This document shows positions 1 to 54,565 of a stretch of DNA of 64,000 bases, one piece after another. The notes beneath the pieces are model-generated. The model did no database searches, was not told where the DNA came from, and worked only from the letters and a program-made list of their open reading frames with translations. The stretch comes from Deferrisomatales bacterium. Its GTDB lineage: Bacteria > Desulfobacterota > Deferrisomatia > Deferrisomatales > JACRMM01. Location of the stretch: positions 1-64,000 of the forward strand of contig JAWSUI010000012.1 in NCBI GenBank assembly GCA_033551855.1, written 5' to 3'. The translations under genes were made by a program, and so were the position numbers. Each line of letters starts with the position of its first letter. The stretch's first letter is position 1.

Positions 1-351
1 CGTGGCGGTTTTCCGTTCTCCCTGGCCTCTGTGGTTCCCCTTGGCGACCTTGGCGCCTTGGCGGTTTTTCGTTCTCCTTCGCCTCTGTGGTTCCCCTTGG
101 CGACCTTGGCGCCTTGGCGGTTCCCACTTCTCCCGCTCCTCCCCGGTTCCCCCTTGGCGACCTTGGCGCCTTGGCGGTTCCAACTTCCCCCCGCCTCTGC
201 GGTTCTCCCCTGGCGACCTTGGCGCCTTGGCGGTTCCCACTTCTCCCGCTCCTCCCCGGTTCCCCCTTGGCGACCTTGGCGCCTTGGCGGTTCCAACTTC
301 CCCCCGCCTCTGCGGTTCTCCCCTGGCGACCTTGGCGCCTTGGCGGTCCAG
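1..351. repeat. Tandem array of a 28-nt motif CCTTGGCGACCTTGGCGCCTTGGCGGTT with ~56-57 nt period
   Basis: Copies at 39-66, 95-122, 152-179, 208-235, 265-292 and 321-348, plus a partial copy at 1-10. The 28-29 nt linkers recur (A,A',B,C,B,C) and end in GGTTC. The array may extend left of the window. Confidence 0.95.
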
Positions 352-357
352 TCCTGG

Positions 358-402
358 TTGCCCCAGCCCAGCACGTGGATTATCATAGCTACATCGATCC
401 AC
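358..402 (+). promoter_or_regulatory. Sigma70-like promoter and operator of the TA pair
   Basis: TTGCCC(358-363)-17 nt-TATCAT(381-386). Inverted repeat GTGGAT(375-380)/ATCCAC(397-402) flanks the -10, as expected for an RHH antitoxin operator. Confidence 0.6.
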
Positions 403-423
403 ACTCAACCGGAGAGGTGTCCC

Positions 424-657
424 ATGCGAACCGTTCAGATGACCCTTGACGAGGGGCTCGTGGACGAGGTGGACCGGGTGGCGGAGGAGCTCCACACGAC
501 GCGGTCGGCGTTTGCCCGCGAGGCCCTGCGCCAGGCCGTGGAGAGGTTCCGGACCCGAAAGCTCGAGCAGCGGCACCGCGAGGGATACGAAAGGCGTCCC
601 GTCGATCCCGCCGAGCTCGCCCTGTGGGAAGGGGAGCACGAGTGGGGGGAGGAATGA
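424..657 (+). CDS. Ribbon-helix-helix (CopG/MazE-like) antitoxin
   Basis: MRTVQMTLDEGLVDEVDRVAEELHTTRSAFAREAL is an RHH pattern. GGAGAGG RBS; ATGA overlap with the toxin. Confidence 0.85.
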   Translation: MRTVQMTLDEGLVDEVDRVAEELHTTRSAFAREALRQAVERFRTRKLEQRHREGYERRPVDPAELALWEGEHEWGEE

Positions 658-965
658 GGCGCGGAGAGGTTCGCTGGTACAAGTTCGCGCGCCCCGACAA
701 GAAGCGGCCGGTCCTGGTGCTGACCCGGGACTCGATCTTGGAGTACCTGGGGGAGGTCACCGTGGCCCCGGTGACATCGACCGTGCGCGACATCCCGAGC
801 GAGGTCTTTCTCTCGACGAACGACGGGATGCCCCGCGACTGTGCGGTCAACTGCGACCACATCCAGACGGTCTCCAAGGCGAGACTCGGCCCTTTGATCG
901 CGACCCTTCCGGACGAGAAGATGGCGGAAGTGGGCGAAGCGATCCGGTTCGCCCTGGGGTTGTGA
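654..965 (+). CDS. PemK/MazF family endoribonuclease toxin
   Basis: MRRGEVRW...KKRPVLVLTRD...VTVAPVTS...NCDHIQTVSK; 103 aa. Confidence 0.92.
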   Translation: MRRGEVRWYKFARPDKKRPVLVLTRDSILEYLGEVTVAPVTSTVRDIPSEVFLSTNDGMPRDCAVNCDHIQTVSKARLGPLIATLPDEKMAEVGEAIRFALGL

Positions 966-978
966 ACGGAAGGCTCTG

Positions 979-1243
979 GACCGCCAAGACGCCAAGGACG
1001 CCAAGGGGGGTTTGAACCGCAGAGGCGATTGAGGACGCAGAGGAAACCGGTGCGTGGTTCGGGAAAGGCAGGCAGAATCCCGACTCCCCTGTTCTTTGAA
1101 GCCCCGCCTCATCGTTCTCTCTGGCCTTCCCCTCCGCGCTCTCTGCGCCTCGGCGGTTCCCACCCGTGCCTTTCCCCGGCTCTCCCTCAGCGTCCTCTGC
1201 GCCTCTGCGGTTCACTCGCTCCTACCTTGGCGTCTTGGCGGTT
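979..1243. repeat. Nested palindromic intergenic element, copy 1
   Basis: Outer arms ACCGCCAAGACGCCAAGG / CCTTGGCGTCTTGGCGGTT. Inner arms AACCGCAGAGGCG..GAGGACGCAGAGG / CCTCTGCGCCTCTGCGGTT. Core 1056-1160 closely matches 1911-2011. Confidence 0.9.
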
Positions 1244-1256
1244 CCAGCGCGAAACG

Positions 1257-1285
1257 TTGCGCGTGTGCATTCGGCCGACTAGACT
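1257..1285 (+). promoter_or_regulatory. Sigma70-like promoter
   Basis: TTGCGC-17 nt-TAGACT upstream of the 1374 ORF. Confidence 0.55.
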
Positions 1286-1373
1286 TCTTTGAACGCTGCC
1301 AATCCGAACAAGTGGCCCGGCACACCCACGGAACCGCCCCCGGCGGATCGGTTCATCAAGAGGAGGCAAGGGG

Positions 1374-1775
1374 ATGGATGTCGGCGACAGCGTCCGGCGG
1401 GCGCTTCAGGAGATGGTTCTCCCCGAGCTCAGCATCATTCGCCAGGAGAATGCGGAGATCAAGGTCCACCTGCAGCTCACCAACAAGCGCCTCGATGACA
1501 TCAACGGCCATCTCATCGATCAAAGCCGACGGATCGACGAGACCAACAAGCGGATCGACGAAACCAACAAGCGGATCGATGAGCTGCGCGCCGAGCTGAC
1601 CCACCGAATGAAAGAGCTGCGGGCTGATCTGACTCATCGGGTCGATGAGATCAACAGGCGAATGGACCGGCTCTACGAAGTGATCGTGCGCCGTGAGGAG
1701 CACGAAAGACTCGAACATCGGCTGGCCCGCCTCGAGAACGAAGTGGCGGAGCTGCGCGCACGCGTCGCCGCGTGA
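1374..1775 (+). CDS. Coiled-coil hypothetical protein with heptad (RIDETNK) and 11-residue (ELRAELTHRMK/ELRADLTHRVD) repeats
   Basis: AGGAGG RBS; 133 aa; internal repeats; lower GC than the flanks. Confidence 0.8.
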   Translation: MDVGDSVRRALQEMVLPELSIIRQENAEIKVHLQLTNKRLDDINGHLIDQSRRIDETNKRIDETNKRIDELRAELTHRMKELRADLTHRVDEINRRMDRLYEVIVRREEHERLEHRLARLENEVAELRARVAA

Positions 1776-1834
1776 TTCTTGAGGTCTGGAAGCTCGATCA
1801 CAAGAAGCCACGCCAAGGACAACGAGAGGTTCTG

Positions 1835-2041
1835 AACCGCCAAGACGCCAAGGACGCCGGGGGCTCTTCGACCGCCAAGACGCCAAGGACGCCAAGAAAA
1901 GCCACTGGGGGGTTCGGGAAAGGCAGAACCCCGACACCCCTGTTCTTCGAGGACCCGTCTCGTCGTCCTCTCCGGTCTTCCCCTCAGAGCCCTCTGCGCC
2001 TCTGCGGTTCCAACCTTGGCGTCCTTGGCGCCTTGGCGGTT
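1835..2041. repeat. Nested palindromic intergenic element, copy 2
   Basis: Left arm (A/G)ACCGCCAAGACGCCAAGGACGCC twice, then the shared core, then CCTTGGCGTCCTTGGCGCCTTGGCGGTT. Confidence 0.9.
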
Positions 2042-2076
2042 CTCGCCTCCGCGGCCCCCCCCCGGTCCGCCCCCCC

Positions 2077-5000
2077 CTACTCTCCCAGCAGGCCGCTCGC
2101 CTCGATGGCCTCCCACCACAGGCTCGCCATCGAGACGTAGCCCGCGCCGTTGGGGTGGAGGGGGTCGACGTACTCTTCGGGGCGGGTGCTGAAGTAGGCG
2201 TAGAAGTCCGGCGGCGTCACGGGGATGCCGTGCTCGGCCACGAGCTCGTCGATGACCACGTTGTACTCTCGGATCCTCTCGTTCTGCGGCTCGTTGTGGG
2301 GATCGGCAAACCACGTGCACCCGCTGCAGGCCCCGAAGCGGATCGGCAGCTTGGCGAGGAGGGGCGTCTTTCCCGAAGCCTGGAGCGTGGTGACGATCTG
2401 CCTCATGGAGGTCCGGAACGAGTCGACCGAGACCAGGCTGCCGGCGTCGTTGGTCCCGAACTGGACGAGCCAGACCTGGGACCGGGGGTGGCGGGCCAGG
2501 GCGGCCGCGAGGCGGGCCGAGGACGCTCCGTCGGCAGCCGTCGTGCCCCCCACGCCCTCGTTCATCACGGTGAAGGGCCGTGTCAGCGAGGCGGTCAGGA
2601 GGTCGTTGAGCACCGGGGCGTAGCCCTTGTGCAGGTTTCGGCCATCTGCGGAGGCATCGTCGTGGGTCCAATCGTCCCCGCCCCCGTTGGTGATGCTGTC
2701 CCCGTAGGCCACGAGGTACGCGCCCCCGACCCCCACCGCAGGGTCGAAATCCCCCGCCCAGGCCCCGAGAACGGGGGCCCCTGCGGCGTCCACGAGCCAG
2801 GCCTCGACCCCACGCTCCCCGGTCGGGACGTTGTCGAAGACGTGCAGATACGGGACGGCATCGTCGACCGCCTCCCGCTCGTTGTCGAGACGAAAGAGGA
2901 TCCCGGCCCCCGACGGAACGTTCACCGCCACGGCAGAGACAGGCAGAGCGTAGGGCGGGTCCTCGGCGTCGGTAACCGCGACGGAGAACGCGCCGGGTGA
3001 CGCGAGCACGACCCTGGGGTCGGGGGAGACCGCCTCGACGACCACGTCGTCGAAGGCGTCTGCCCCTCCGGCGAACAGGGCCACGGTGCCGGAGGGAAGC
3101 GCGGCATCCTCTGCCGCGAACCGTGCCTCCCCGTCCACGTACACGAGGATCTTCGGACCGGAGAGCACGACTTGGAGGTCCAACATCACCCCGTCTTCCC
3201 TGCCGTACCCCCGGCCGTCCACCGCCAGGGTGGAGAAGTCGCCGTTCACCCGCTTCTCGAGCCGCCCGTAGCCCATGCTCCGGCTCAAGGTGAGCCGGTA
3301 GTAGTTCCCTGGGTCCGTGTACCGGAACATGACCCCCAGCCCCTGGGTCACCCCCGGGAATGCCCGAACGCTCACCTGGTAGTCGGAGAGACCGAATCCG
3401 CCGTCGTAGACCGCAAAGCTCCCCCGGAAGAACCCCCCCGAGTGGCTCCCCACGCCCGTATTCGACTGCACCAGCCTGCCGTCGGCCACGTACCAGTTGG
3501 AGGCGTTGCCCCCGTCGTCCACCGGGGTCCAGGTGTCAAGGCCGCCGTCGCTGAAGTCGTCGAAGAAGTAGTGGTGAACCGTGATGGTGATCGTCTCTCT
3601 GTCGGTGAGCCCGCCGGCCGTGGCCGTGAAAGTCACGGGGTAGCTGCCCGCCTGAGTGAAGCCCGGCGTCCAGCTGAAGGTCGTCCCGTCGAAGGTCGCA
3701 CCGGTCGGGAGTGCCGACGTGGTGATCGTCACCGGGTCCCCGTCGGGGTCCGCGGCGCTGACCGTGAAGTTCAGGAGCGAGCCCTCGGCCACGGTCTTGT
3801 TGCCGATGGGCGCCAGCACGGGCGGCCGGTCGACGTCGGTCACCGTGATGGTGATCGTCTCGCTGTCGGTGAGCCCGTTGGCCGTGGCCGTGAAGGTCAC
3901 GGGGTAGCTGCCCGCCTGAGTGAAGCCCGGCGTCCAGCTGAAGGTCGTCCCGTCGAACGCCGCCCCGGACGGGAGCGGTGCGGCGCCGATCGTCACCGGG
4001 TCCCCGTCGGGGTCCGCGGCGCTGACCGTGAAGCTCAGGAGCGAGCCCTCGCCCACGGTCTTGTTGCCGATGGGCGCCAGCACCGGCGGCCGATCGACGT
4101 CGGTCACCGTGATGGTGATCGTCTCGCTGTCGGTGAGCCCGCCGGCCGTGGCCGTGAAGGTCACGGGGTAGCTGCCCGCCTGAGTGAAGCCCGGCGTCCA
4201 GCTGAAGGTCGTCCCGTCGAAGGTCGCACCGGTCGGGAGTGCCGACGTGGTGATCGTCACGGGGTCCCCGTCGGGGTCCGTGGCGCTCACGGTGAAGCTC
4301 AGGAGCTGGCCCTCGGCCACGGTCTTGCTTCCGATGGGCGAGAGCTGGGGGGGGCGGTCGACGAACCCAACCGACAAGGTGAAGCTCTCGGAATCCGAAA
4401 GCGGTGGACTCCCGTGATCCGTTGCCGTAACGATCACGCCGTAGTTGCCTGCGTGCCCGAAATTTGGCGAGCACTCGATGGAGCCGGTCCCGTTGCCCGC
4501 ATCGGTCAGGGAGCAGAAGCTCGGCAGGCCGGTGGCCGACAGCCGCAGGCCGTCCTCGTCCGGATCCGAGGCCGCCAGCTGTATCGTGATCGACTGCCCC
4601 TCCGGAACACTCTGATTGGGGATGGCCGTGAGGACAGGGGCTCGGTTCACGTTGGTCACCGTGACGGCGATCGTCTCGGAATCCGTGAGCCCGTTCGCCG
4701 TGGCCGTGAACGGCACCTGATAGCTGCCCGCCTGGGTGAAGGTCGGCGTCCAGGAGAAGGTCGTCCCGTTGAAGGTCGCACCGCTCGGGAGCGGCGCGGC
4801 CGTGATGGTCACGGGGTCGCCGTCTGGGTCGGACGCGCTCACCGTGAAGACCAGAGACTGGTTCTCCGCGACGCTCTTGTTCCCGATGGGGGCCAGCACG
4901 GGGGGCCGGTCCACCGCGCCCACTGAGAGCGTGAAGGTCTTCGAATCCTCGAGAGGGGGCGAGCCGTCGTCGGTCGCCGCCACGGTCACCAGGTAGTTTC

Positions 5001-5568
5001 CCGCATCGCCGAATCCCGCCGAGCAGGTCAGGGACCCGGTGCCGCCGCCTGCATCGTGCAAGGCGCAGAACGCCGGCAGTCCGGTCACGGAAAGGCGCAG
5101 CACATCCCCGTCCGGGTCCGAGGCCGAGAGGTCCACCGCCATCGTCTGTCCCTCGGGGACGCTTTGATTCGGAACGGGGAGCAGCACCGGCGGCCGGTTG
5201 GCGGCAATGACGGCGATGGTGACCGTGGCCGGTGCGGAGAGGAGGTCCCCGTCGCTTGCCGCGTAGGAGAAAGCGTCGGTGTCGTGGAAGTCGGCTGCCG
5301 GCTGGTAGCGGAAGGACCCGTCGGGACTCAGGGTGAGGGTCCCGTTGGCGGGGCCGGTGAGAAGGATGGCCGTCACCGGGTCGCCGTCCGGGTCCTCGTC
5401 GTTGTCGAGGACCCCGGGGGCCTCGATCTCGAGAATCTCCCCCCGGTCTATGTGGTAGGCGACATCTCGGGCCACGGGGGGCGCGTTGCCCCCCGAATCC
5501 CCGCCCCCGCCGGACGAGCCGCAGGCGGCGAGGAACAGGGCCAGAAGAACCGTGACCCCAAACCGCAT
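2077..5568 (-). CDS. Large surface lipoprotein: cadherin/Ig-like repeats, beta-sandwich domain, C-terminal SGNH/GDSL hydrolase
   Basis: Lipobox LAAC. Repeated ..D/NRPPVL..DPDGD..FSWTP..G.Y.VTFTAT units. SGNH blocks GDSIT, GVGG, FGTND and DPLHP. Confidence 0.85.
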   Translation of the reverse strand: MRFGVTVLLALFLAACGSSGGGGDSGGNAPPVARDVAYHIDRGEILEIEAPGVLDNDEDPDGDPVTAILLTGPANGTLTLSPDGSFRYQPAADFHDTDAFSYAASDGDLLSAPATVTIAVIAANRPPVLLPVPNQSVPEGQTMAVDLSASDPDGDVLRLSVTGLPAFCALHDAGGGTGSLTCSAGFGDAGNYLVTVAATDDGSPPLEDSKTFTLSVGAVDRPPVLAPIGNKSVAENQSLVFTVSASDPDGDPVTITAAPLPSGATFNGTTFSWTPTFTQAGSYQVPFTATANGLTDSETIAVTVTNVNRAPVLTAIPNQSVPEGQSITIQLAASDPDEDGLRLSATGLPSFCSLTDAGNGTGSIECSPNFGHAGNYGVIVTATDHGSPPLSDSESFTLSVGFVDRPPQLSPIGSKTVAEGQLLSFTVSATDPDGDPVTITTSALPTGATFDGTTFSWTPGFTQAGSYPVTFTATAGGLTDSETITITVTDVDRPPVLAPIGNKTVGEGSLLSFTVSAADPDGDPVTIGAAPLPSGAAFDGTTFSWTPGFTQAGSYPVTFTATANGLTDSETITITVTDVDRPPVLAPIGNKTVAEGSLLNFTVSAADPDGDPVTITTSALPTGATFDGTTFSWTPGFTQAGSYPVTFTATAGGLTDRETITITVHHYFFDDFSDGGLDTWTPVDDGGNASNWYVADGRLVQSNTGVGSHSGGFFRGSFAVYDGGFGLSDYQVSVRAFPGVTQGLGVMFRYTDPGNYYRLTLSRSMGYGRLEKRVNGDFSTLAVDGRGYGREDGVMLDLQVVLSGPKILVYVDGEARFAAEDAALPSGTVALFAGGADAFDDVVVEAVSPDPRVVLASPGAFSVAVTDAEDPPYALPVSAVAVNVPSGAGILFRLDNEREAVDDAVPYLHVFDNVPTGERGVEAWLVDAAGAPVLGAWAGDFDPAVGVGGAYLVAYGDSITNGGGDDWTHDDASADGRNLHKGYAPVLNDLLTASLTRPFTVMNEGVGGTTAADGASSARLAAALARHPRSQVWLVQFGTNDAGSLVSVDSFRTSMRQIVTTLQASGKTPLLAKLPIRFGACSGCTWFADPHNEPQNERIREYNVVIDELVAEHGIPVTPPDFYAYFSTRPEEYVDPLHPNGAGYVSMASLWWEAIEASGLLGE
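3580..4340. repeat. Near-identical 264-bp intragenic tandem repeats (about 3 copies)
   Basis: GTGAAGCCCGGCGTCCAGCTGAAGGTCGTCCCGTCGAA recurs at 3656, 3920 and 4184. Confidence 0.9.
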
Positions 5569-5753
5569 GGGGCATCCCCCTTCCCTGGGACTCCTTCGGG
5601 AAACGGTTCCGAAGAAGCAGCTTTTCCGAGCAGCCACAAACTCTGGGGCGTTCGTCTCAGGGCAAGAACGTGCGGAGTGGCAGGGAAGGCGGAAAGCCGG
5701 GGGGCACACTGCTCAGAGCCCTCCGACTTTCCCGCCTTCCGGTTCCTTCGTTC

Positions 5754-7268: not shown

Positions 7269-7303
7269 GATGGGACCTCCGCTTCCCATCCCCGACGCGA
7301 GCC

Positions 7304-7362
7304 GGGCCCTTCCGAAAACTCAGTGGGTCAATCAAGGGCAGGGACGATCTCGCGCAGGGCCG
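7304..7362. repeat. Dispersed ~60-bp intergenic repeat (second copy 54167-54226)
   Basis: GGCCCTTCCG..AACTC.GTGG.TCAATCAAGGGCA.GACGATCTCGCGCAG.GCCGC is shared between the two copies. Confidence 0.85.
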
Positions 7363-7378
7363 CCTCCTCCCCCTGTAC

Positions 7379-7579
7379 GACAACCCATCCCCACCCTCGC
7401 CCTCCCCTTGAAGGGGAGGGAAACCTGGGGCCGGGAAGGGCACCCGACAACCCATCCCCACCCTCGCCCTCCCCTTGAAGGGGAGGGAAGCCTGGGGCCG
7501 GGAAGGGCACCCGACAATCCATCCCCACCCTCGCCCTCCCCTTGAAGGGGAGGGAAGCCTGGGGCCGGGAAGGGCACCG
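7379..7579. repeat. Three tandem 67-bp REP-like units
   Basis: CCATCCCCACCCTCGCCCTCCCCTTGAAGGGGAGGGAA unit starts at 7383, 7450 and 7517. Related copies at 12211-12250 (inverted), 12400-12438 and 35950-35986. Confidence 0.95.
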
Positions 7580-23542: not shown

Positions 23543-23977
23543 CTAGGCGGAAATCAGGCCAAACCCCAGCCCCTCGGCTGCCCTCACCAGGGCGTCGTCG
23601 AAACCTGCGAAGCGAAAGTCCACACCGGACCCGAGCCCGTCCCGCACGGATTCGGCTGCTGCCAAGTGGACGCTGTCGTAGCCCCGAAGGCCGAAACGTT
23701 CCGCGAGGTCTGCGGCCCGGCGAATCTGTCCCTCTGTCGGCAACACCACTCGAAACCGCTCCCATGCCTCATCGAGCTCCCGCTTGTGCAGGATGAGCCC
23801 CTCCGGCGTTTCCCGCCGTTGGCGCAGCGCCTTGGCCAGACCCGCGCGGACCTCGGCATAGGCGATCAGATGAGTGCAGGAGGCAACTGACTCCCGCAGC
23901 GCCTGTCGGACGAGGTCCGCATGCGGCTCTGCGATATAGAGCTTCACGATGGCCGAGGAGTCGAGATACAGGATCAC
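23543..23977 (-). CDS. VapC PIN-domain toxin
   Basis: YLDSSAIVKLY, YAEV, LRGYDSVHLAAA, FD. Confidence 0.92.
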   Translation of the reverse strand: MILYLDSSAIVKLYIAEPHADLVRQALRESVASCTHLIAYAEVRAGLAKALRQRRETPEGLILHKRELDEAWERFRVVLPTEGQIRRAADLAERFGLRGYDSVHLAAAESVRDGLGSGVDFRFAGFDDALVRAAEGLGFGLISA

Positions 23978-24270
23978 TCCCGGTCCTCGCAGATCATTTC
24001 GGAGATCATCTCGTCACCGGGCTTCCAGGGAATCGGCTGCTTGGAGCCTCGAGGTTTGCCTCCCTTGCCCGGGCGAATCCAGGGCAAGGCGTCCAGCCGC
24101 GCGAGCGCTTCCGCTTCTCCGCCGGCCGGACTCTCGCCGGAAACCGGGTCCGCGGGGACCAGCCTGGCAATGGGCCTTCCCCCGTCGGTCACCACGATCT
24201 CTTCTCCCCCTTGCATTCGGCGGAGATACTCCGTGAAGCGGCTTTCGATCTCCTGCACGGCCACCCTCAT
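23974..24270 (-). CDS. Phd/YefM antitoxin
   Basis: SRFTEYLRRMQGGEEIVVTDGGRPIARLVP; overlaps vapC. Confidence 0.88.
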   Translation of the reverse strand: MRVAVQEIESRFTEYLRRMQGGEEIVVTDGGRPIARLVPADPVSGESPAGGEAEALARLDALPWIRPGKGGKPRGSKQPIPWKPGDEMISEMICEDRE

Positions 24271-24378
24271 GGTCTCGTCCTCCCTGCAACCGAGAAACAG
24301 GCACTCAGTATAGCCGTGAGGTCCGTCCCCCGCCACGCCGGCTGGGTGCCGGCCACGGACGGAGGGCGGCGGGCCGGC

Positions 24379-54078: not shown

Positions 54079-54565
54079 CGGGCCGTGACCTCCCGCGAAA
54101 AGGCGCAAGTGAGAAACGCTACCAGCCCGCTCCGAAGCTTGTCAACCGGCACTTCGGGCCTGGAATCGGCCCTTCCGGCAACTCGGTGGATCAATCAAGG
54201 GCAAGAACGATCTCGCGCAGAGCCGCGTGGGCGCGGAGGAGTTCTTTGGGCTCTCTTCCGGACCGTGTGGGTAGTCCCGCTGTATCGGCTTTGGTTGCGA
54301 AGCCGGCCGAGGGCCGGCGGCAGGGTCCATCGCCGAGATCGGGGGCCCGATGGAAACCCACACAGATCGAAACAGAACCATTCTTTGTCTTTCCCGGCGC
54401 CTCTGCGCAAGAACACGATGGTTCCTCGCACCCACGAAAAACCCGGAAGCTCCCCGGAATCGGCCGCCCGTCCGTCCGAAAATCCGGTGGTGGATCTGCG
54501 CGGGCGGCACGACGGTCACCGCGGGTGTCCGGCTCCCCGGCGAGCCCGAGTCCTCCGGGGGGGCG

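Follow-up and report, generated by a model that had tools for sequence, protein, structure and literature searches.

A mazEF toxin-antitoxin pair and a gene for a coiled-coil protein lie at the very start of contig C12 in the assembly of a Deferrisomatales bacterium (4.24 Mb, 69.6% GC, 132 contigs), where they alternate with repeats that form inverted pairs. We analyzed them within a window of 64,000 nt, the whole stretch of DNA studied here, which begins at the start of the contig. A first-pass annotation of this DNA had read the locus as an array of cassettes, each small gene being bracketed by its own matched inverted repeats. We find that the self-complementary unit is the spacer between the genes, not a gene with its own brackets. 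Three such units, H1 (truncated where the contig begins), H2, and H3, would form a short run of non-autonomous hairpins whose arms, made of tandem 8-9-nt words, face inward. Complete members of the family hold a GxxExxY gene (PD-(D/E)XK, PF13366) within the loop or between two hairpin copies, and gene-less members are dispersed at gene junctions in the manner of REPINs, the hairpin-forming repetitive extragenic palindromic (REP) sequences. We consider it probable that the locus is a hot spot of rearrangement where REPIN-like GxxExxY-family hairpins alternate with small genes that are mobile on their own.

The spacer between the genes is the hairpin

The arms have a 17-mer core that occurs 11 times in the window, always within positions 49-2040, compared to 0.00 times in 100 shuffles. 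Searching the whole genome for the motif, as the first-pass annotation had proposed, yielded 27 copies when a gap of 1-2 bases was allowed. An AAC triplet opens most arms, and its complement closes them. The flanking repeats that the annotation described are indeed present: the left arm (330-351) and the right arm (976-997) of mazEF are complementary at 21/22 positions, and 1225-1244 on one side of the coiled-coil gene is the exact reverse complement of 1834-1853 on the other.

The same arms also pair inward, across the spacer. In H2, outer arms with the word CGCCAAG (~980-1004 with 1225-1242) enclose a nested pair with a different word, CGCAGAG (~1015-1045 with 1185-1214); both pairs are centered on the spacer, and the second word pairs only inward. 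H3 is a direct paralog of H2, with 79% identity over 193 nt and 84% over a 95-nt core that has no other copy in the assembly, and the two are also homologous for ~14 nt outside the left arm. This core recurs in a solo element between unrelated genes in G002, a genome of the same genus. The folds are very stable and lie directly 3' of stop codons.

Polarity and spread of the arms in other genomes

A scan of GTDB contigs for the arm gave at least 121 loci, which are not independent of one another, many being from Sorangium. We used 118 and dropped three as presumed overlaps, one of which, L052, is actually a distinct site. Among the matches listed, which fall in Cyanobacteria, Myxococcota, Chloroflexota, Planctomycetota, Lentisphaerae, Proteobacteria, and other phyla, an opposite arm within 280 nt faces inward at 67 of 113 testable loci and outward at 2 of 114; within 3.5 kb the counts are 43/68 and 6/62. 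Twelve of these genomes have 23-256 arm copies each, largely as inward pairs at the places listed, and the hairpin is found solo, with no gene between copies, across phyla. Within the phylum of our bacterium the arm word is patchy (8/401 genomes, this one counted). A DNA search of seven other genomes of the family returned nothing beyond a solo hairpin, arms, and one coiled-coil homolog lying between REPs of the type associated with RAYTs (REP-associated tyrosine transposases).

In G008, a row of hairpins brackets genes for D-aminopeptidase, capsule (PGA_cap), deacetylase-like, and ATP-grasp proteins with outward-facing arms, just as mazEF is bracketed in our window. When neighboring junctions each carry a hairpin, any gene between them seems to be bracketed by outward-facing repeats.

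The stability of folds placed right after stop codons, together with arms that are kept at orthologous junctions (C82 vs G002; C29 vs G002 L335), raises the idea that the hairpins are host RNA elements (a terminator, stabilizer, or insulator) or protein-binding sites, as proposed for paired tandem-word sites in Geobacter metallireducens (PMC2700814). We think this quite unlikely: the words are lineage-specific and patchy in the phylum, the same word turns up in unrelated phyla, the arms are tied to a nuclease gene, and a search against Rfam gave no credible match. A side effect of the hairpins on transcription is compatible with their being REPIN-like elements.

The hairpins are tied to GxxExxY genes

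An intact PF13366 gene is enclosed by inward arms of this very word in G008 (L011) and in Sorangium (L031). In our own genome, at C82:1086-1292, an in-frame GxxExxY gene with its middle deleted is enclosed in the same way, and the tandem run at 1-351 of the window, which shares its arm type with the 5' arm of this remnant, matches the C82 arms at 87-93%. The hairpins in the window share two marks of GxxExxY-associated hairpins, inward arms of 8-9-nt tandem words and a word that elsewhere encloses a GxxExxY gene or remnant. A GxxExxY match was found in only 4 of the at least 121 arm loci; therefore, most copies are gene-less.

Inverted arms are found in a gene's own two flanks at 22 of 32 testable GxxExxY genes, compared to 61 of 992 cross-pairs, and the word differs from locus to locus; the real co-variation is that of the arm word with the GxxExxY locus. 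In a second layout, the GxxExxY gene lies between two whole hairpins (L290, L318), as the genes in the window do. The two 153-nt hairpin copies at L318 (G001:C235) differ at 3 positions. This hairpin-GxxExxY-hairpin unit comes directly after a Phd antitoxin gene, and the toxin gene that follows is apparently truncated.

One multicopy element of this genome has the form hairpin-GxxExxY fragment-hairpin (C9:84330-84960), accompanied by ~20 near-full single-hairpin copies. It is a MITE (miniature inverted-repeat transposable element) of ~155 nt with terminal inverted repeats and a GxxExxY-type hairpin core. Of its 48 BLAST matches, 20 are near full length; target duplications of 8-10 bp accompany 9 of the 17 scored copies, and some copies carry other inserts.

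GxxExxY genes occur in 15 of the 61 genomes sampled in the phylum. On a tree of 38 GxxExxY proteins, labels for the gene-in-loop and gene-between-hairpins layouts, assigned by a crude rule, showed no significant clustering, in that 47-48 of 500 shuffles gave scores as low. Among the titles, abstracts, and passages covered by our literature searches, we found none linking these arms to GxxExxY genes or to toxin-antitoxin arrays.

Homologs of the small genes occur without the arms

The annotation had tied the genes to their own repeats, and the homologs do not bear this out. mazEF belongs to a mobile module whose homologs, 63-81% identical, occur in many lineages, and the arm is present in 0 of 81 other testable homolog loci; 6 of these have other word repeats. 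Among the 81, direct repeats on both sides were seen at 8, compared to 2 of 59 same-locus controls and 0 of 405 shuffles, and inverted repeats at 1. Coiled-coil homologs, found in 17 of 301 genomes from the phylum, our own counted, were inspected by eye at 30 loci, this one and duplicates included; the homologs showed no such arms, and some had other repeats. Since the homologs of both mazEF and the coiled-coil gene lack the arms, these genes are mobile on their own and occur in many contexts.

Eight mazEF homologs, unlike the copy in the window, look by eye like integron cassettes with attC-like flanks (L180, L185, L189, L190, L201, L218, L251, L279). A strict heuristic attC detector fired at 2 of 82 mazEF loci and nowhere in the window, and a loose one exceeded the 99th percentile of shuffles in 0 of 99 loci. 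Because the detectors gave no confirmation, the attC-like flanks of these homologs are a likeness seen by inspection only.

Enrichment of the motif beside small variable genes, as the annotation had foreseen, is nevertheless real in this genome: 7 of 68 toxin-antitoxin modules have an arm of this word within 600 nt, compared to 8 of 2561 other genes, which were crudely called. For word repeats of any kind the counts are 16/68 and 161/2561, and no arm was detected at 52 of the 68 modules. Direct repeats in both flanks occur at 12 of 60 modules and in 8 of 600 random intervals, an imperfect control in that these are mostly coding; the direct repeats around the modules are mostly other sequences, host gene ends included. 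The toxin-antitoxin loci that we examined in repeat-bearing genomes, part of all such matches, numbered 120 (110 distinct), and 28 of them have an arm. Only 2 of the 110 distinct loci have a true bracket, in each case with arms that differ in word. Another of the three distinct bracket matches, L459, was rejected, its false arm lying in the antitoxin start codon region.

Dense islands of toxin-antitoxin modules lie in this genome (G000) at C24:1-16200 and on C99, C122, and C77, with 40 PIN, 23 Phd, and 10 ParE matches genome-wide. Hairpins from several unrelated families (RAYT-type REPs and arms of octamers or heptamers) stand between the modules, frequently solo or as direct copies. Solo arms lie 3' of modules on C77 and C99. 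On C99 (1760-1960, 5064-5362, and 6464-6746), an apparent gene tail followed by a solo arm is present in three direct copies around different modules, which suggests stepwise accretion. Elsewhere on C24 (46344-46400), arm and heptamer repeats run in frame within the coding sequence of a membrane protein. Other modules are flanked by direct duplications of 25-135 nt of local host sequence, gene ends included (Table 1), a hint that modules insert at tandem-duplication junctions.

Arm flanks and competing accounts of the array

The annotation stated that the arms co-vary per cassette. The 20-mer on both sides of the coiled-coil gene is the family consensus, and its match is uninformative because the genome holds 7 exact copies, 5 of them elsewhere. 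For mazEF, two of the three variable arm positions differ between its arms, and the CTGG/CTGA difference amounts to one base that distinguishes two paralogous spacers. In X1, a close strain, the arm base at 1233 differs, its inward partner at 989 is unchanged, and 1845 is not visible. The identity of paired arms is 0.71 inward vs 0.55 outward in G008 (n=9 each) and 0.84 inward (n=55) vs 0.67 outward (n=8) among the collection loci.

Several observations weigh against our preferred interpretation. In this genome the arm identity is 0.84 inward vs 0.88 outward (n=4 each). The mazEF arms have in common an outer flank of 4 bases that 2 of 30 arms bear: the CTGG-flanked form occurs exactly twice in the assembly, on both mazEF brackets, the left one being the last arm of the 1-351 run. 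A PIN module in G008 likewise has a matching 4-nt flank. We recognized no GxxExxY remnant in H2 or H3, by six-frame reading or by tblastn of the genome, so these count as gene-less members, and we found no target-site duplication of 4 nt or more at their ends. The sole intact GxxExxY gene of the assembly has arms of another word, so a cognate enzyme for the arms of the locus is putative here. The action of the nuclease on the hairpin is one that we infer, and PF13366 is listed as having unknown function (PMC3424549). Lastly, the counted loci lack independence, given the many Sorangium loci and the toxin-antitoxin islands.

The flank matches bear most directly on an integron-like alternative, in which each hairpin is an attC-like site and the mobile unit, a gene plus one hairpin, moves as a circle catalyzed by the GxxExxY nuclease or a host enzyme. 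The outermost base pairs of the circle would then come from the two ends of the cassette, predicting direct hairpin repeats around each gene and cassette-specific matching of the bases just outside the arms. In its favor, H2 and H3 are direct paralogs whose core is found nowhere else in the assembly, and mazEF and the G008 PIN module have matching flanks. The near-identical hairpin copies around the GxxExxY gene at L318, the enrichment of arms near toxin-antitoxin modules, and the direct repeats in both flanks of modules also fit. Furthermore, an orthologous site in G000 and G002 keeps the arm while the loop and the neighboring gene differ, and on a soil contig, X3, a mazE-like gene is joined to arms on one side and to an arm on the other (the joint, like that of X2, is short and the likeness relaxed, so this is only a hint).

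Against this account, sharing of at least 4 flank bases is seen in 9.4% of all 435 arm pairs in this genome, and the chance of one such match among 4 outward pairs is 0.33. When six small-gene brackets were compared, those of mazEF and the G008 PIN module matched at 4 flank bases, those of the coiled-coil gene and a BrnT/BrnA module at only 2, and the remaining two had arms of different words; a match of at least 4 nt in 2 of 6 brackets stands against a background of 9-22% per pair. We regard the flank matching around small genes as suggestive, not significant. Moreover, the direct repeats beside modules are mostly unrelated to the arms, and most modules have no detected arm. No circle, inversion, or empty allele of the locus was seen, and contigs alone could not have excluded one. 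We rate it unlikely, though credible, that the GxxExxY hairpins serve, in the way of attC, as single-strand sites of recombination for a second cassette system that works without an integrase and in which the nuclease nicks the folded hairpin. If this were so, circles of a gene plus hairpin, carrying the nuclease gene or toxin-antitoxin passengers, would enter existing hairpins and build the islands of this genome, and the closing base pairs of the circle would have left their scar in the CTGG flank that is private to the two mazEF brackets.

The annotation's own model, with the gene as the unit, bounded by outward inverted repeats and moved or inverted by a recombinase encoded elsewhere, draws on the alternating orientation of the arms, their closeness to the mazEF promoter and stop codon, the well-matched mazEF pair with its private flank, and 6 tyrosine-recombinase matches in the genome. 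We hold it to be very unlikely. Few arm pairs face outward and many face inward, toxin-antitoxin modules on C77 and C99 are followed by solo arms, and homologs of both genes do without arms. Both genes point in the same direction, and contigs of strain X1 show the same order. No dif-like site was found in 1-2300 with two patterns at up to 7 mismatches.

Comparison with known systems

Our preferred interpretation, REPIN-like hairpins among independently mobile genes, resembles REP/REPIN-RAYT systems, with their gene-less intergenic inverted-repeat hairpins in tens to hundreds of copies and an infrequent small gene of nuclease type that has these repeats on its flanks (PMC5581495, PMC3184786). 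In contrast to those systems, the arms here are tandem 8-9-nt words, and the gene encodes a PD-(D/E)XK GxxExxY protein rather than a Y1 HUH enzyme. We found no Y1 RAYT flanked by the arms: none of the 11 Y1_Tnp matches in the genome is on C12, and the one that shares a contig (C101) with a listed arm of this word is ~2.8 kb from that single arm. A RAYT-like open reading frame on C24 has other REPs; classical RAYT/REP loci are separate in this genome.

Geobacter metallireducens has paired tandem octa- or heptanucleotide sites of classes 1-3, which were read as sites for regulators (IHF/HU) and resemble our arms in their opposite-strand pairing, variable spacing, 3-5 tandem words of 7-8 nt, and position at gene junctions (PMC2700814). 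Their words are different, and the passages on these sites make no link to GxxExxY genes or toxin-antitoxin arrays.

Integron arrays likewise alternate small genes with long imperfect hairpins in direct orientation (PMC5027507), but unlike attC sites the hairpins here span 210-270 nt and have near-perfect word arms. Neither H2 nor H3 contains attC boxes (RYYYAAC/GTTRRRY). The best match to the integron integrase profile TIGR02249 scored 84 bits against a cut-off of 265, which in an assembly of 132 contigs is not proof of absence.

The closest match to the model of the first-pass annotation is the pdif module of Acinetobacter, where accessory and toxin-antitoxin genes lie between alternately oriented sites (PMC13141974, PMC9455709). 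However, the sites here pair into hairpins, and no XerC/XerD-like 11-6-11 site (28 bp) was found. IMU-type MITE composites, in which a passenger gene lies between two copies, in direct orientation, of a folded non-autonomous element (PMC3184786), differ in that no target-site duplication was found and no related transposase is apparent for H2 and H3, which are only 79% alike.

Genes and other features of the locus

The antitoxin, toxin, and coiled-coil genes are all on the + strand (Table 1), in keeping with the co-orientation reported earlier. The claim that each carries its own -35/-10 elements holds for mazEF, whose promoter layout is kept in homologous loci as judged by eye; for the coiled-coil gene the promoter scan found none. 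A palindrome in the mazEF promoter region is a candidate operator by analogy with other ribbon-helix-helix (RHH) antitoxins, which autoregulate their own operon. Lower GC than the flanks was claimed for both genes and is seen for the coiled-coil stretch (60.3%), not for mazEF (65.7%, vs flanks of 67.8% and 65.1%); both are under the window mean of 70.7%. In agreement with the annotation, the window yielded no recombinase, and it yielded no transposase either.

Table 1 Features of the locus and related elements (window positions unless a contig is named).
Feature	Position	Strand	Evidence
Tandem run of six arms (H1), 56/57-nt units, cut by contig end	1..351	-	Period 56, 5.9 copies
mazEF promoter (-35 at 358-363, -10 at 381-386)	358..402	+	9/12 consensus matches
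Candidate palindromic operator, 375-380 / 397-402	within 358..402	+	In the mazEF promoter region
RHH antitoxin (MazE-like), 77 aa	424..657	+	PF01402, E=1e-5
MazF/PemK toxin, 103 aa	654..965	+	PF02452, E=2e-20
Hairpin element H2	976..1244	.	DNA z -6.8, RNA z -7.9
Weak promoter candidate, coiled-coil gene	1257..1285	+	7/12 matches, 17-nt spacer, under scan threshold
Coiled-coil protein, 133 aa, 7-residue internal repeat	1374..1775	+	No family above cut-off
Hairpin element H3, direct paralog of H2	1832..2042	.	RNA z -5.1
Flanking gene, immunoglobulin (Ig)/cadherin repeats and GDSL domain	2077..5709	-	Profile matches
~155-nt MITE copies	54168-54453, 7301-7363; C55:5657-5811, C109, C114, C48		
Modules with 25-135-nt flanking duplications	L182, L181, L223, L193, L186, L192; G000 C22:49842-50171		

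The flanking gene at 2077-5709 encodes a large protein of secreted type; it has Ig repeats of 264 bp, and a GDSL domain lies at the C-terminus. The C-terminal 207 aa of this product had no match in 30 relatives, which therefore gave no syntenic empty site for comparison. A second toxin-antitoxin pair in the window, PIN and Phd-like, lies at 23543-24336 with a heptamer repeat at ~23494. Another palindromic repeat, three 67-nt tandem copies at 7378-7578, presumably resembles the repeats beside DUF559 endonuclease genes.

Discussion

Of the earlier proposal that repeats mediate the capture of small genes, what stands is an array that alternates with a repeated structured element and an enrichment of arms beside toxin-antitoxin modules. 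Its unit, a gene within its own matched outward repeats, is not supported: the spacer is self-complementary and occurs alone, homologs lack the arms, and larger genes, of capsule and glycosyltransferase type, are bracketed alike in G008. The claim of a stand-alone new cassette system with matched brackets does not hold.

If the hairpins are REPIN-like elements of the GxxExxY family, the GxxExxY nuclease may bind, recognize, or nick the extruded hairpin and so spread it. Nicking, together with recombination or slippage between direct copies, would create hot spots in which hairpins duplicate, as H2 and H3 and the 56-nt run may have done, and self-promoted addiction modules such as mazEF could land in these hot spots and persist. 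Gain or loss of a gene plus one hairpin through ordinary recombination of direct copies would be a likely by-product rather than the work of a dedicated capture system. The arrangement would then parallel REPIN/RAYT while using an enzyme of another family. The hairpins would be a new local form of REPIN-like element linked to an uncharacterized nuclease, with a modest hint of passenger capture.

To our knowledge, the movement of chromosomal toxin-antitoxin modules without mobility genes of their own is an open question, and the enrichment of these hairpins and of other direct repeats beside the modules suggests routes of movement that can be tested. GxxExxY proteins are widespread and have no known function; the REPIN-like repeat family tied to them offers a directly testable substrate.

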